A stretch of DNA of 64,000 bases from Burkholderiales bacterium (GTDB lineage Bacteria > Pseudomonadota > Gammaproteobacteria > Burkholderiales > JAHFRG01): assembly GCA_036522275.1 (NCBI GenBank), contig DATDGC010000020.1, forward strand, positions 17,995-81,994. The letters run 5' to 3'. Positions 3,670 through 49,217 of this stretch are shown piece by piece. The first letter of the stretch is position 1. Each line of letters begins with the position of its first letter. The notes beneath the pieces were generated by a model, which saw only the letters and a program-made list of their open reading frames with translations, searched no databases and was not told the origin of the DNA. The position numbers were made by a program, and so were the translations under genes.

Positions 3670-4803
3670 ATGCAAAAGATGAAACCCTTATTACTATTCC
3701 TGCTGTTCCCGTCACTGCTTTTCGCCCAGCAACTGCCTGTTCCCCAAGCACCCTCGATCGCGGCTAAATCCTATTTGCTCACCGATTTTTACAGCAAGCA
3801 AGTTCTGGTCGGGCAAAATATCAACGAGCGTATCGAGCCTGCGTCGCTAACCAAATTGATGACCGCCTATCTCACTTTCACCGCGCTCAAGCAAAAACAA
3901 ATCACCCTCGAGCAGATGCTTCCGATATCCACCCGCGCCTGGCGTGCCGAAGGCTCGCGCATGTTCATCGAACCCGACAAACCGGTTAAGGTGGACGAAT
4001 TGATACATGGGATGGTAGTGCAATCCGGCAACGACGCCTGCATCGCGCTCGCCGAAGGCATCGCCGGCAGCGAGGAAGTTTTCGCGCAGATGATGAACCG
4101 CGAAGCGCAGCGTCTGGAAATGAAAAACACGCATTTCACGAATTCCACGGGATTGCCTCATCCGCAGCATTACTCTACTGCATATGACCTGTCTTTGCTC
4201 GCAGCAGCAATAATACGCGAATTCCCTGAATACTACCCGCTGTATTCGGTCAAGGAGTACAAGTACAACAACATTTCGCAGACCAACCGCAACCGTCTTC
4301 TGTGGACCGACCCCTATGTGGATGGGATGAAAACCGGTTATACCGAAAATGCGGGTTACTGCCTCATTTCTACCGCGAAAAGAGGCTCGCGGCGACTGCT
4401 TTCAGTAGCCCTGGGCGCTGCGTCGGACAGCGCTCGAGCTATCGAAAGCCAGAAGCTTCTCAATTACGGTTTCCAGTTCTATGACACGCTGCGCCTCTAT
4501 GCAAAAGGTCAGGCGGTGACCAGTTTCGCGGTATGGAAGGGCACCGAAAATTCGGTCAAGGCGGGATTCGCGGAGGATGTTTACTTAAGCATCCCCAAAG
4601 GCCAGTCAGAGCGCCTGAAAGCCACCATGGAAAGCCGGCAACCGCTGATTGCGCCGATCAGCGCCGGGCAAAACGTCGGCATGGTCAAGCTTACCCTGGA
4701 TGGCAAACCGGTAGCAGAATATCCAGTGATTGCACTTGAGAACGTGGAACTCGCCAACATCCTGGGTCGCGAATGGGATAGCCTGCGGCTGCTTTTTAAT
4801 TAA
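3670..4803 (+). CDS. dacC: serine-type D-Ala-D-Ala carboxypeptidase (PBP5/6 class)
   Basis: Signal peptide, followed by SLTK (SxxK), SGND (SxN) and KTGYT (KTG). Confidence 0.9.
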   Translation: MQKMKPLLLFLLFPSLLFAQQLPVPQAPSIAAKSYLLTDFYSKQVLVGQNINERIEPASLTKLMTAYLTFTALKQKQITLEQMLPISTRAWRAEGSRMFIEPDKPVKVDELIHGMVVQSGNDACIALAEGIAGSEEVFAQMMNREAQRLEMKNTHFTNSTGLPHPQHYSTAYDLSLLAAAIIREFPEYYPLYSVKEYKYNNISQTNRNRLLWTDPYVDGMKTGYTENAGYCLISTAKRGSRRLLSVALGAASDSARAIESQKLLNYGFQFYDTLRLYAKGQAVTSFAVWKGTENSVKAGFAEDVYLSIPKGQSERLKATMESRQPLIAPISAGQNVGMVKLTLDGKPVAEYPVIALENVELANILGREWDSLRLLFN

Positions 4804-4816
4804 GGTTGTTTTTCAA

Positions 4817-8235: not shown

Positions 8236-8632
8236 AGAGCCTCTAACATAATGAAACGAATAATGCGACGGCGTCGGTTTCGGAGGCAGGCCGCGAAGCG
8301 AGCCGCGCCGTTGGGTCACTCCCCAATAAGCGGCGAGCGACAAAGGCATGCGCCGAAAGCGCCCCGGACTCGGTCTCGCGCAGCGTGGTGCGGGAAGGGG
8401 CGCAAGCTGCCGCAAACATATCGTTAAACGGGGCGCTCATGCTGCCGCTCCCGCACCCCAAGCTTCGCTTACCGTGTCGCGGCAACCGCCGTCCCCAAGG
8501 GTTGCGGCCAAAAAGCGCGCCTGCTTCGTTGCTCGGCTTACTCGATGTCCCGGCATCGAGTTGCGCCACGCGTCCCGCATTCATCGCTTTTTGGCCAGCT
8601 ACGCAAATCCGTTTCATTATGTTAGAGGCTCT
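8236..8632. repeat. dispersed non-coding element, copy A (full length)
   Basis: 8236..8258 (AGAGCCTCTAACATAATGAAACG) is the exact reverse complement of 8610..8632. The interior is homologous to 48050..48450, and in part to 43766..44034 and 23432..23562. Confidence 0.85.
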
Positions 8633-12661: not shown

Positions 12662-13606
12662 ATGTCCGTATTCACTACCGTCACTCCGGAACAGCTCTCG
12701 GAGTGGCTGAAAAACTACTCGCTCGGCACACTCACTGGCTTGCGCGGCATCGCTTCCGGCATCGAGAACACCAATTACTTCTTGGATACCACTCACGGCC
12801 GTTACGTGCTCACGCTGTTCGAGAAACTGCGTGCAGAAGAGCTGCCGTTTTACCTCAACCTGATGTCGCACTTGGCAAGCCACGGTATTCCCTGCCCCGA
12901 CCCGATTGCTAATCTGCAAAACAACTTCTTAAGTGAACTCAACGGCAGGCCGGCGTGCATCGTCACCTGTCTCGATGGAGTGGATTTAAAGACCCCCACA
13001 TCCGATCATTGTGCTGAAGTGGGTGAGTTGCTTGCCAACCTGCATCTTGCGGGTCAAACCTATCCAGTGAAAATGGAAAATCCACGCGGCACGCGCTGGT
13101 GGACTGCCACCGCCCCGCAACTCATGCCTTTTCTGTCGCAAATTGAAGCGGAACTGCTCAAGGAGGAACTGCACTTCCAGTCGCTTTACCGTTACCAGGA
13201 TTTGCCGCGCGGTGTGATTCACGCCGACTTGTTCCGCGACAATGTGCTGTTCCACAACGATACCATCAGTGGGGTCATAGATTTCTATTTCGCCTGCAAT
13301 GATGTATTGCTCTACGACGTGGCTATCACCGTCAATGATTGGTGCGTGACTGCGAGCTATGAACTGGATGCCGGGCGCACCCAGGCACTGCTTTCGGCCT
13401 ATCATGCCAGCCGCCCCTTCACCGCAAACGAGCGTGAGGCCTGGCCGGTGATGCTGCGCGCCGGCGCGCTTCGCTTCTGGATCTCGCGTTTATATGATTT
13501 TCACTTGCCGCGGCCAGGGGAGCTCACTCATGCCAAGGACCCCAAACATTTCATGAACATCCTCAAGCAACACGCCAGCGGAAAATCCGGCGTAGTTTGG
13601 CCGTGA
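12662..13606 (+). CDS. thrB: homoserine kinase (ThrB, APH-fold type)
   Basis: N-terminus MSVFT.V....L..WL..Y.LG.L....[10 protein letters not shown] and the catalytic region [13 protein letters not shown]. Confidence 0.85.
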
Positions 13607-13686
13607 GTCAAGCAACCGGCTTCAAATATTGTGCAAATCGGTGTAACTTAGAAACGTAAACAAAAAGTCTTCTTGGGAGGTACATC

Positions 13687-14394
13687 ATGGAACCACGTCA
13701 AGTCGCCGCCGGTCAGGGATGGCAATGGATCGTCGAGGGATTTGGTCTCTTTAAAAAAAGCCCGGTTATCTGGGTGGTCCTAGTTATCATTCTTTTCCTG
13801 ATCGCCATAGCGTTGCATTTTATTCCGATACTGGGACCCCTGGTGCTGTATATCCTGTCACCAGTATTTCTCGGCGGATTGATGGTGGGCTGCAAAGCGC
13901 AGCAAAACGGCGAAGAACTAGAAATCACGCATCTTTTTGCCGGCTTCAAGAAAAACACCAACGCGCTTATCGCGCTGGGCGGCATCTACCTAGTCGGGCA
14001 AATCATCATCCTCGCCGTGATGTTCATTCTCGGCGGCAGCGCCATCATCAGCCTCATGAAAGGCGGCGAGCCCGACCTCGCGGCGATGACCGCAGCGATG
14101 AGTGGCGCTATACTTGCGGTACTGGTTGCGCTCGCTCTCTATGTGCCGCTTGCCATGGCGTTGTGGTTCGCCCCGGCGCTCGCAATATTCAATAACATGC
14201 AACCAGTTCCTGCGCTGAAATCAAGCTTCGACGCCTGCCTGAAAAACATTGTTCCATTTTTGATTTATGGCATCGCGATCTTCGTGCTCGCGCTAATTGC
14301 CAGCATTCCGCTGTTCCTCGGTTTCCTGGTTTTGGTTCCGGTGATTTTTGCCTCGATTTATATCAGCTACCGGGATATTTACACTGGCGCTTAG
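13687..14394 (+). CDS. multi-pass inner-membrane protein of unknown function (BPSS1780-like)
   Basis: 235 aa with about 5 hydrophobic helices. N-terminus GQGWQWIVEGFGLFKKSP. Confidence 0.5.
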   Translation: MEPRQVAAGQGWQWIVEGFGLFKKSPVIWVVLVIILFLIAIALHFIPILGPLVLYILSPVFLGGLMVGCKAQQNGEELEITHLFAGFKKNTNALIALGGIYLVGQIIILAVMFILGGSAIISLMKGGEPDLAAMTAAMSGAILAVLVALALYVPLAMALWFAPALAIFNNMQPVPALKSSFDACLKNIVPFLIYGIAIFVLALIASIPLFLGFLVLVPVIFASIYISYRDIYTGA

Positions 14395-23241: not shown

Positions 23242-23245
23242 TTTT

Positions 23246-23570
23246 GCCGGGGGCAGCCCGGCTGCTGGTTACTTTTTCTTGCTTGGCCAAGAAAAAGTAA
23301 CCAAAAAGAAAGCCACCCCGGTTCCGCGCCCCTTCGACAAGCTCAGGGGTTCCCTGCGTTGCTCGCCAAACCGGGCGGCTGCGCAACTCAACCTCGGCCT
23401 TACGGCCTCGGGATTCGGACAGTGCTCGCCGGCGCCCCGGACTCGGACTCGCACAGCGTGGAGCGGGAAGGGGCGCAAGCTGCCGCAGGAGACACCGTGA
23501 AACGGGGCGCTATTGCTGCCGCTCCCGCACCTAAGAGCTTCGCTCACCGTGTCGCGGCAGCCCCCCGGCA
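23246..23570. repeat. dispersed non-coding element, copy B (composite: D-type module fused to the A/C-type core)
   Basis: 23246..23431 is homologous to the reverse complement of 48995..49217 and includes the perfect hairpin GGTTACTTTTTCTTG-CTTGGC-CAAGAAAAAGTAACC (23267..23302). 23432..23562 is homologous to the core at 8359..8490. Confidence 0.8.
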
Positions 23571-42678: not shown

Positions 42679-43764
42679 ATGGCGCTTCTGGAAATCCGCA
42701 ATGTCACCCGCCGCTTCGGCGATCTGGTCGCAGTAGATAACGTCAGTATCAATATCGAGGCAGGAGAATTCTTCACTCTGCTCGGCCCTTCGGGTTGCGG
42801 CAAAACCACGCTGCTGCGGATGATTGCGGGATTCGATTTGCCCGACGACGGGCAGATCCTGCTCGAAGGCAAGGACCTCGCGGGCACGCCGCCGGAGAAA
42901 CGCCCGATTCATACCGTGTTTCAGAGTTACGCGTTGTTTCCGCACATGACGGTTACGGGCAACGTTTCTTTCCCGCTGAAAATGGCGGGCAAAGCCGCCG
43001 ACGAAATCCACGCCAAGGTCAAGGAAGTGCTGGACTTGGTTCATCTCTCGGATAAAGGCGAAAGTTTCCCGCATGAACTGTCCGGAGGCCAGAAGCAGCG
43101 TGTGGCGCTCGCCCGCGGACTGGTTAACCAGCCGCGACTGTTGATGCTCGATGAACCGCTGGGGGCGCTGGATGCCAAGCTGCGCGAGGAAATGCAAATC
43201 GAGCTTATAACTTTGCAACGCGATGTTGGTATTACGTTCGTGTTTGTAACCCACTCGCAGGCTGAGGCGCTCGCGCTTTCACATCGTATTGCGGTGATGA
43301 ATGCCGGCAGGATCGAGCAGATGGACGAGCCTTCCAAAATCTACAGTTTTCCCGCAAACCGTTTTGTCGCCGACTTCATTGGCCGCATCAACATGCTGCA
43401 AGCCGAAGTGCTGGAAGCGGCCTCCGATCATCTGCGCATCCGCATTCCCGGCATGGGTGAAGTGCGGGCGCCCGCCAAAACCGGTGCCGCGCGCGGCCAG
43501 AAAGGAATGCTGGCGCTGCGCCCCGAGCAGGTGCGTATTGCCGCCAAGATTGATGATGTTGCGCGCGACAATCACTTCCCCGGAAAAGTTCGTGATTTTC
43601 TGTATGTGGGCGACATCACCACTTATATCGTTGACCTTAACAACGGCGCGAAAATTGAAGCGCTGCTGCCTAATTCGGCGCCGGGGCGCGCCAAATTCTT
43701 CGAAATCGGCGATGCTGTCGAGGTCGCCTGGCGCCAGGATGCGGGATTATTCCTAAGTGAATAA
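42679..43764 (+). CDS. potA: spermidine/putrescine-type ABC transporter ATP-binding protein
   Basis: GPSGCGKTT, LSGGQKQRVALAR, LMLDEPLGALD and a C-terminal TOBE-like domain. Confidence 0.85.
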   Translation: MALLEIRNVTRRFGDLVAVDNVSINIEAGEFFTLLGPSGCGKTTLLRMIAGFDLPDDGQILLEGKDLAGTPPEKRPIHTVFQSYALFPHMTVTGNVSFPLKMAGKAADEIHAKVKEVLDLVHLSDKGESFPHELSGGQKQRVALARGLVNQPRLLMLDEPLGALDAKLREEMQIELITLQRDVGITFVFVTHSQAEALALSHRIAVMNAGRIEQMDEPSKIYSFPANRFVADFIGRINMLQAEVLEAASDHLRIRIPGMGEVRAPAKTGAARGQKGMLALRPEQVRIAAKIDDVARDNHFPGKVRDFLYVGDITTYIVDLNNGAKIEALLPNSAPGRAKFFEIGDAVEVAWRQDAGLFLSE

Positions 43765-43765
43765 A

Positions 43766-44034
43766 AGAGCTCATCTCGGGAATATCCACGTGATGCGTTG
43801 CGGTCCAGAAAGCGATGACTGCAAGGCGCGAGGAGGCCGCATAGTACTCCTATGCAACGACGAGCAACACCGCAGGCGCGCTTTTCTGGCCGCAACCCTA
43901 TGGGACGGGGCGATTTTGGGCCACTTCGGCGTTGCTCGCCGCTTATTTGGAATGGCCAAACTGCGCGCCTCGCGCCTAGAACTGTCACCAAAATCGCCGC
44001 CGTCGCACGCGCGGCTGTTCCCGAGATGAGCTCT
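43766..44034. repeat. dispersed non-coding element, copy E (internally deleted)
   Basis: 43766..43782 (AGAGCTCATCTCGGGAA) is the exact reverse complement of 44018..44034. The interior is homologous to both flanking thirds of copy A in reverse orientation and lacks the central core. Confidence 0.8.
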
Positions 44035-44922
44035 CTAAACTCCGCCCGCGTCACCAAATGGCTCGTCAGCGGGCCGCCGTTTCTTTACCTGACGCTGTTT
44101 TTTCTGCTGCCCAGCCTCATCATGGTGGTGGCCTCTTTCCGCTATCCCGGAGACTATGGCGGTCTCGCGCCGATCTTCGGAATCGAACCAGGCAAGGAAG
44201 CCGGGCTCACGCTGGAGACTTACCGGTTTTTTTTCAGCGATTTCATCTACACCCAGGTTTTCATCAAGTCTTTCGGCGTCGCGCTCGCCACCACGCTGGT
44301 TTGCCTGCTGATGGCGTATCCGCTGGCGTTGCTGATTGCTCACAGCCCGAAGAAGCACCGTGACTTCATGGTGCTGCTGGTGATTCTCCCTTTCGCCAGC
44401 AATTTCCTGATCCGGGTTTACGCCTGGATGATTATTCTCGGCCCGCAGTCGGCTTTCAGCCTCGCGGTCAATCACGCACTCGGCTGGTTCGGTATCGCGC
44501 CGGTGCCTTTGCTGTTCTCTTCGTTCGCGGTGCTGGTGGGCATGGTGTATGTGCACCTGCCGTTCATGGTGCTGCCGCTTTACACTAATCTGGAAAAGCA
44601 TGACCCGGTATTGCTTGACGCTGCGCAAGACCTGGGCGCGAACGCGTGGGATCGATTTTGGAAAGTCACCTGGCCGTTGTCGCTCCCCGGCGTGTATTCC
44701 GGCGCGGCGCTGGTATTCATCCCGGTGCTCGGCATGTTCGCCATTCCCGACATCCTCGGCGGCACCGGCGACATTCTCATCGGCAACCTGATTAAAGACC
44801 AGTTCCTCGGCACGCGCGACTGGCCGTTCGGCAGCACGCTTTCCATTATGCTCACCATCGCCGTGCTCTCGCTTGCGGGCATCACCGCCGTCATTAGCCG
44901 TCAAGGCGTTAGAAATGCGTAG
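44026..44922 (+). CDS. potB: polyamine ABC transporter permease (PotB-like)
   Basis: 6-TM permease with an EAA loop (LLDAAQDLGANAWDRFWKVTWPLSLPG). The ATG at 44026 is the only plausible start before the first TM helix, and it lies inside the right terminal repeat of copy E. Confidence 0.8.
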   Translation: MSSLNSARVTKWLVSGPPFLYLTLFFLLPSLIMVVASFRYPGDYGGLAPIFGIEPGKEAGLTLETYRFFFSDFIYTQVFIKSFGVALATTLVCLLMAYPLALLIAHSPKKHRDFMVLLVILPFASNFLIRVYAWMIILGPQSAFSLAVNHALGWFGIAPVPLLFSSFAVLVGMVYVHLPFMVLPLYTNLEKHDPVLLDAAQDLGANAWDRFWKVTWPLSLPGVYSGAALVFIPVLGMFAIPDILGGTGDILIGNLIKDQFLGTRDWPFGSTLSIMLTIAVLSLAGITAVISRQGVRNA

Positions 44923-48049: not shown

Positions 48050-48450
48050 GGAACCTCTGATTAAGTCCTCCACGGATTGCGTTGCTGGCAAAATGTGGAT
48101 GGATGCGAGGCGCGCGACGAAGGTCGTAGCCTGGACTACGAAGCCAAGGAGCGCAACGACGCAGACGCCGCATTTTGCCGCAACCCAGATGGGACGGCTG
48201 CCGCGACACGGTCAGCGAAGCTTGGGGTGCGGGAGCGGCAGCATGAGCGCCCCGTTCCACAATGTTTCTTGCGGTAGCTTGCGCCCCTTCCCGCTCCACG
48301 CTGTGCGAGACCGAGTCCGGGGCGCCTTTCCGGGCGGTCTGCTTTGTCGCTCGGCTTGCCAAGGGTGGTGGCCATTGGCTGCGCCTCGCTTCGCGCATCC
48401 CATCCAGGAAAGCGGCCGTCGCAACTGCGAGGGACTTAATCAGAGGTTCC
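48050..48450. repeat. dispersed non-coding element, copy C (full length, inverted relative to copy A)
   Basis: 48050..48068 (GGAACCTCTGATTAAGTCC) is the exact reverse complement of 48432..48450. The interior aligns end to end with the reverse complement of copy A. Confidence 0.85.
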
Positions 48451-48934: not shown

Positions 48935-49217
48935 ATCGGGGGCTGCCGCAATTATGTCCCCATCTGCGGCGCTGAGGTTTGGAAGGCAAGTTGGGGGATT
49001 CCGGCGAGCACTGTCTGAGCACGTGGCTGCAAAGCGGATCGTGCGAGTTGCGCAGCCGCCCAACTTGCCAACAAACCGAAGGAAGCCCTGAGCCAACGAA
49101 GGGCCGGCGCAGCGGGGCGGCTTTCTCTTTGGTTACTTTCGCTTGGCCGCGCAAGAGAAAGTAACCGGCTGTCGGGCCGCCCCCGACACAAACCACCAGC
49201 CGCCGGGCTGCCACCGG
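48935..49217. repeat. dispersed non-coding element, copy D (second module type)
   Basis: Homologous to the reverse complement of 23246..23431. Contains the hairpin GGTTACTTTCGCTTG-GCCGCG-CAAGAGAAAGTAACC (49131..49166). It abuts the metH stop codon. Confidence 0.75.

Follow-up and report, generated by a model that had tools for sequence, protein, structure and literature searches.

The nearest precedent for the element described here is Chunjie, a MITE of Geobacter uraniireducens Rf4 that is about 235 bp long with 21-bp terminal repeats (Chen et al. 2008, as summarised in PMC10969869 and PMC3184786). On the summary given there, Chunjie has a very stable predicted RNA fold and lies inside an ABC-transporter operon, in that case for phosphate uptake, the structure of which is reportedly undisturbed. 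In these respects it is like the element found between potA and potB, two genes of a polyamine-transporter operon in a Burkholderiales genome, here called copy E. Some Chunjie copies are also said to overlap protein genes. Unlike copy E, Chunjie is summarised as A+T-rich with 9-bp direct repeats, and it has no sequence relation to E.

The Correia/NEMIS elements of Neisseria share with the family of copy E their TA termini and their long terminal repeats, present as a hairpin in transcripts with neighbouring genes, and likewise have short and long size classes, frames fused to host genes and sites that are occupied or empty depending on the strain (PMC2229807). They differ in being 104-157 bp with one long stem-loop, an IHF site, promoters and demonstrated RNase III cleavage, whereas the E family has a three-way junction, is G+C-rich and has different arms, its hairpin in a shared transcript being predicted. 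The Rickettsia palindromic elements (RPE) and the intragenic ERIC/RU sequences are, like E, palindromic mobile repeats with stop-free frames that give codons to host proteins (PMC10969869, PMC2759123). These insert in-frame inside genes, whereas E, at an operon junction, has taken over a gene's start and gives the final protein three codons only. In open-access full text no description was found of a terminal repeat that provides a start codon where a stop/start overlap has been broken and that comes with a possible relay frame, nor of this three-way-junction repeat family. The kind of event is known, and copy E illustrates it clearly; the repeat family behind it seems to be undescribed so far.

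The potA/potB junction with and without the element

The window, that is the whole 64-kb stretch of DNA that was analysed, carries potA, encoding the ATPase of an ABC transporter, at 42679-43764 (plus strand, stop TAA at 43762-43764), and potB as now expressed, an open reading frame of 298 aa, at 44026-44922 (plus strand). Between them is copy E, a canonical 269-nt member of a hairpin-forming, MITE-like family, at 43766-44034 (plus strand). Its left terminal inverted repeat, 43766-43782, is AGAGCTCATCTCGGGAA and forms the 5' strand of a stem, P1, with imperfect pairing continuing to about 43790. The right repeat, 44018-44034, is the exact reverse complement over 17 bp, forms the 3' strand of P1 and holds the potB start in use. 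The base of P1 is 2 nt beyond the potA stop. Even at 3 or fewer mismatches the arm occurs at just these two sites in the window; shuffled sequences average 0.17.

The positions of the potA stop, of both arms and of ATG 44026 within the right arm had been given in a preliminary description of this DNA, and all agree with the sequence. That description called ATG 44026 the only plausible potB start. It is the best one, favoured by homologue lengths of 298-299 aa and by the NCBI annotation, in which an identical 298-aa protein from a 'Burkholderiales bacterium' MAG (HEY6280631.1) starts at this ATG, but it is not the sole in-frame ATG, as there are others within copy E at 43852 and 43900. In relatives the orthologous operon has a potABCD-type Pfam set: ABC_tran plus TOBE_2 (PF00005 and PF08402 in the potA orthologue of locus L001), two BPD_transp_1 permeases and a periplasmic binding protein, with the permease named 'spermidine/putrescine transport system permease protein' in JGI. 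The window potC and potD overlap as ATGA.

An uninterrupted potA/potB junction is present in three relatives, L001 (~91% nucleotide identity), L005 (~90%) and L007 (~84%). In these, potB starts within the end of potA, as GTGAATAA, ATGATTAA or ATGCTTAA followed by TTTGTTGAAC, the ancestral overlap having the 8-nt pattern (A/G)TGAnTAA, and the empty sites read TAA-TTTGTTG-AAC. This comparison of insertion-free junctions had been proposed as a check on the start of potB, and it places the ancestral start over the end of potA. The PotB proteins of the relatives are 299 aa and begin M/V-x-N-L-L-N-S, as do many more distant homologues; that of the window begins M-S-S-L-N-S and is one residue shorter. 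The window junction reads GTGAATAA-AA-[GAGCTC...GAGCTC]-TCTA-AACTCC, so that seven ancestral bases (TTTGTTG) are absent and AA and TCTA have been gained. A relic of the ancestral potB start is still present as GTG at 43757-43759 (plus strand), overlapping the potA stop as GTGAATAA, and it is here that potB of L001, L005 and L007 starts. The second carrier of E, L004, has ATG at this position.

These alignments show that copy E inserted just after the shared TAA, severing the old potB start and the first four codons from the remainder of the gene. The first three codons of potB today (M-S-S) were donated by the right arm of E and replace M/V-x-N-L, as both the empty sites and the N-termini of the homologues show. 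Of the two origins that had been proposed for these codons, donation by the element is thus the one borne out by the three empty sites and the PotB homologues. Such a change is tolerated because the first ~10 residues of PotB vary freely across homologues. There is no clean target-site duplication at E. Duplication of TA, TAA or CTAG was considered, and none yields the observed junction without an extra loss of 7-8 nt.

In the other proposed origin the stem was built from gene sequence: the 5' end of potB was there first, as the right arm, and was copied in inverted form to give the left arm. In its favour, the arm holds the start codon and E-type arms were found at no other locus. It expects an uninterrupted potB in a close relative to begin ATGAGCTCT. 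The ancestral 5' end is instead GTGAATAATTTGTTG / GTGAATAATTTGTTGAAC, which has nothing in common with the arm of E. Furthermore, related copies that stand at unrelated loci in other genomes have terminal repeats, such as AGAACCTATCTCAGCAATAC in L082, that can be aligned with this arm column by column, and L052 shows the same CAT/ATG at the same place. An arm derived from the gene is therefore scarcely credible, and can be regarded as already refuted by the empty sites.

A repeat family with a conserved fold

Other members of the family were sought by scanning a motif of one internal hairpin (H1, below) against one genome per species. The loci found are in Casimicrobiaceae and other Burkholderiales MAGs, and include 32 distinct complete copies of 266-286 nt with well-paired inverted-repeat ends, as well as more copies truncated at contig ends. 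Three members, A, C and E, are in the window. Perfect repeat runs in the other complete copies are 12-24 bp. The copies contain only short frames, without a conserved protein, and no transposase gene. By size, repeats, copy number and the existence of occupied and empty sites the family is MITE-like, in the sense of the reviews PMC2229807, PMC3184786 and PMC10969869. E is absent from L001, L005 and L007, and copy C from L001.

The arms vary by subfamily, being GGAGCCTGTCGGGCTT in the largest, GAACCTATCTCAACAATAC in the closest relatives of E, GAGCCTCTAACATAATGAAACG in the copy A type, GGAACCTCTGATTAAGTCC in the copy C type, GGAACCTCTAACATGATAATT in a copy at the potB/potC junction and GAGCTCATCTCGGGAA in copy E. 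Only the outer GRRCCT-like bases are common to them, yet within each copy the arms stay well paired. In the largest subfamily TA is found at both ends in 12 of 21 copies and at the left end in 18 of 21, often inside CTAG; the flanks of the 21 have no common motif beyond TA. This fits a TA-duplicating transposase and is consistent with mobilisation of the IS630/Tc1-mariner kind (as for RUP), although an IS5/IS427-type would fit equally. Neither the potB/potC copy nor copy C has a clean target-site duplication. No matching IS630 repeats were identified for the family, and at no locus examined were family repeats paired more than ~400 nt apart, as in an autonomous partner. A metagenome scan with the E-type arm GAGCTCATCTCGGGAATATC gave three matches, all of them unrelated chance ones.

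A single family member is found beside rfbD on the Citrobacter braakii plasmid pF217-3, an enterobacterial conjugative plasmid (L131 2375-2665, equal to NZ_CP136728.1 89786-90076), with arms CTAGGCT(A/G)TGTCCCTTAATTG. An IS630-family gene near this copy was considered as its mobiliser and set aside, its repeats being unrelated. There were no further members in 72,556 plasmids and none in 5,426 E. coli genomes. At L094 6363-6635 (minus strand) an A-type copy lies 3' of a cysN-like gene, the frame of which enters the arm and takes its stop TAA from it (...AAGMIKEPLT-stop); a cobA/cysG-like gene starts 11 nt past the element. L058 has a lone right-end fragment of a C-type copy of ~45 nt (4760-4806), 72 nt downstream of a complete C-type copy, and the orthologous place in the window (13560-13720) has neither.

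Copy E had been described as internally deleted relative to copy A (8236-8632, minus strand, arms AGAGCCTCTAACATAATGAAACG). The homology on which this was based is real: E 43861-43908 matches copy A 8535-8489 at 87.5% identity and E 43931-44007 matches copy A 8341-8264 at 75.6%, while copy A 8342-8488, between these blocks, has no match in E. However, most of that stretch is a 128-nt module, X (8359-8486), and L023 has an orthologue of copy A that is 273 nt long and is without window positions 8359-8486. With 266-286 nt being canonical in the 32 complete copies, it is the long copies that carry an insertion, and copy E is an ordinary full-length family member.

Module X is also present in copy C (48050-48448, plus strand, arms GGAACCTCTGATTAAGTCC), at 48199-48325 on the minus strand, and it has the same relative position in both copies, near the base of the second internal hairpin (H2). 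A third copy, at 23432-23559, is free-standing, outside any family member. The three (128 nt) have 88-92% mutual identity. Module X has no Rfam match and is absent from every other locus examined. It resembles another small mobile unit, one that prefers a particular site within the family element. Adjoining it at 23432 is another repeat, Z, of ~190 nt, the two copies of which (23242-23432 and, inverted, 49001-49191) are 76% identical; it contains a GGTTACTTTTTCTTG...CAAGAAAAAGTAACC hairpin, and related pieces are found in L082 and L005. A 395-nt C-type copy at L066 2981-3375 has a different insertion, of ~125-165 nt, inside H1, and therefore nested insertions into family elements recur.

The predicted RNA fold of 43750-44060 has an energy of -141 kcal/mol (z = -6.4), and the arms form the closing stem, extended imperfectly inward, as had been expected. 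The consensus from an alignment of 33 copies is a three-way junction, made of P1 and two hairpins that in E are H1 (43797-43896, plus strand), flanked by the invariant GCGTTGC and GCAACCC, and H2 (43904-44004, plus strand), flanked by GGGAC and GTCGCA. Covariation agrees with this consensus. A standard pair is formed in 96.9% of cells, against 34-41% when partners are slid by 1-3 columns, and 53 of 88 pairs have changed on both sides, against 14-27 in the slid controls; none of 500 shuffles reached these values. Departures of the G-U and A-C kinds are symmetric (20 versus 23 column pairs), and family copies point either way with respect to the genes beside them. Either strand could therefore adopt the fold, and on these data an RNA structure is not told from one of single-stranded DNA. 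Rfam 15 has no match in the whole window, with copies A and E giving chance-level values only (E > 0.4), and a tRNA and tmRNA scan found nothing.

A sister of copy E stands at the next junction of the operon, potB/potC, in L001 (10890-11159), L127 (1359-1628) and L130 (1467-1736); this site is empty in the window and in L005. L001 lacks E. The ancestral sequence at this junction, ATGCGTAG, has an 8-nt overlap of potB and potC. In L001 the left arm of the sister copy supplies the last codon and the stop of potB, which ends R-N-L-stop instead of R-N-A-stop. In L127 and L130 the junctions are identical to those of L001 and the interior is inverted. One frame is open across the sister copy in all three, and so in both orientations. 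It starts at an ATG in the arm, one base past the stop that potB now has (TAAcATG), and ends at the ancestral TAG, which the ATG of potC overlaps.

How potB may be translated after the insertion

Translational coupling operates by termination and reinitiation at overlapping stop and start codons, such as ATGA, TAATG and ATGnnTAA. The junction at E differs from ordinary coupling in that a 90-codon, transposon-derived frame, which may serve as a relay, bridges the two genes. This putative relay frame (43757-44029, plus strand) runs from the relic GTG at 43757 across all of E to TGA at 44027-44029, which overlaps the new potB ATG as ATGA. There is thus a start/stop overlap at each end of it, GTGAATAA at potA and ATGA at potB. 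The corresponding frame of L004 (542-814) is open too and also ends in ATGA. Many interior frames of the family lack stops (66 of 180, against 5-10% in shuffles, in the 33-copy alignment plus L127 and L130), so an open frame across E is not significant by itself. Copies of the A and potB/potC types have, on each strand, one frame that is stop-free from end to end of the element, and their arms contain an in-frame ATG.

The anti-Shine-Dalgarno sequence pairs with the 20 nt ahead of ATG 44026 at -1.8 kcal/mol at best, and so there is no Shine-Dalgarno sequence. The suggestion that the potB start is base-paired in the transcript is upheld by the folding model, in which the AUG has a predicted unpaired probability of 0.0004 in free RNA. 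When the RNA up to 43774-43777 is held single-stranded, as a ribosome halted on the potA stop would hold it, this rises to a predicted 0.53-0.60, and the point made about the stem in the preliminary description is therefore sound. A promoter scan found no promoter-like site in 43600-44200, including none inside E that could drive potB alone, so co-transcription is likely.

In the proposed mechanism, ribosomes leaving potA would re-initiate at the old GTG start, translate through the element and unwind it, terminate at the UGA on the new AUG (AUGA) and then re-initiate on potB. A ribosome stopped at the potA stop would also open the stem's outer half and help to expose the AUG. Insertion of E, donation of M-S-S and a relayed potA-potB coupling together are probably the right explanation of the junction. 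We think, from the arrangement of the frames, that a relay through E would keep the coupling rather than lose it. The 17-bp stem, within a fold of predicted energy -141 kcal/mol, could still reduce PotB output.

The same predictions would also serve a reading with no relay, in which the stem hides the AUG and PotB is made only as a ribosome that terminates on potA opens the left arm, or in much smaller amounts than before, so that the PotA:PotB ratio has been weakened or re-tuned by the insertion. The buried AUG, its lack of a Shine-Dalgarno sequence, its exposure once the left arm is single-stranded and the closeness of the stem base to the potA stop, at 2 nt, all accord with this. However, the old start still overlaps the potA stop and its frame crosses E to end on the new AUG, and ribosomes on that frame would unwind the stem anyway; the presence of the insertion allele on two backgrounds 9% apart also argues against strong harm. 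Sequestration without a relay is thus unlikely, though it keeps some weight. Much less likely is that the insertion disabled potB, or is polar on potBCD, with intact frames that merely reflect its recency. A weak terminator-like hairpin at 43927-43941, added to the buried start without a Shine-Dalgarno sequence, could be read in this way, and the 1.1% difference of the element between its two carriers is consistent with a young allele. Against this, the window has intact potB, potC and potD, and L004 and L126 both have an intact potB, with potC open over the portions present on these two short contigs. The dN/dS values are 0.09-0.15; between the two E-bearing lineages that of potB is 0.15, a value that largely reflects divergence that may predate the insertion. 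The allele is in at least two diverged lineages, and the sister element is at the second junction in three lineages, with all genes intact. The relayed coupling remains the preferred reading.

Age and spread of the insertions

Copy E in the window and its counterpart at L004 551-819 differ at 3 of 269 nt (1.1%), all in unpaired positions, while their flanks differ by ~9% (dS 0.24-0.42), with the nearest differences at -4, -8, -10 and +10. The potB/potC copies of L001 and L127 differ at 5 of 270 nt (1.9%) within flanks that differ by 6-13% (nearest -4 and +8). For both, divergence is dense up to the element borders and nearly nil inside. Copy A differs by ~4.8% between the window and L023 and its flanks by 6.8% (nearest -20 and +18), from which it is clear that the elements are not intrinsically slow to change. 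Constraint from the fold was considered as the cause of the low divergence and rejected, as the differences among L001, L127 and L130 are not compensatory and copy A changes nearly as fast as its flanks. L005 is 0.55% from L004 in potB-potC, yet is without E, and differs from it by 5.5% in the last 549 nt of potA; this jump marks a recombination boundary near the junction. Both E alleles have the same irregular junction.

Most simply read, each insertion would have occurred once, later than the deep polymorphism that surrounds it arose, and homologous recombination would then have carried it from lineage to lineage in exchange tracts that end at the edge of heterology. It is improbable that the shared insertions are instead independent, site-specific events of a homing-like kind. 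The collapse of identity exactly at the borders of E and of the potB/potC copy could be so explained, as could the lack of E in L005 despite its closeness to L004 in potB-potC, and the potB/potC copy in both orientations. However, the flanks of the 21 copies have no common motif beyond TA, and a random repeat event would not reproduce the loss of the same 7 nt and the addition of AA and TCTA in both E alleles. Recombination is also frequent, as shown by the gene-by-gene mosaic of divergence (in one pair, 13% in potA, 6% in potB and 8% in potC). A further alternative is that the three-way junction has a role of its own as RNA, whether it is processed by RNase III or RNase E, acts as a sensor or gives rise to an sRNA, and that the copies in operons are kept for this role. 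The strong covariation and the invariance of the four junction motifs (GCGTTGC, GCAACCC, GGGAC and GTCGCA) across subfamilies with differing arms would agree with this, and RNase III cleaves transcribed Correia elements (PMC2229807). The lack of an Rfam family match, the equal frequency of G-U and A-C departures, which favours neither strand, the copies in both orientations relative to flanking genes, the uncompensated differences of the potB/potC copies and the divergence of copy A at about the rate of its flanks all speak against it and make a retained RNA function quite improbable. One insertion per site, spread by recombination, is the simplest account of the shared copies.

It is also conceivable, if doubtful, that the family as a whole is adapted to operons, with arms that contain start and stop codons, a body that is stop-free on both strands and ends that pair with each other. 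Such an element would rebuild coupling by a relay where it lands on overlaps, and its alleles would be spread by recombination and possibly favoured.

The family is worth describing for its conserved three-way junction, its differing yet paired arms and its excess of stop-free frames, and can serve as a recombination marker for uncultured soil Burkholderiales. Copy E is also a warning for annotation, in that a true gene start can lie inside a repeat. The case shows that a transposon can land where an operon is most fragile, at the stop and start that coupled genes share, without destroying this point. If the relay is true, it would explain by one simple, general rule how operons can tolerate some hairpin repeats within them.
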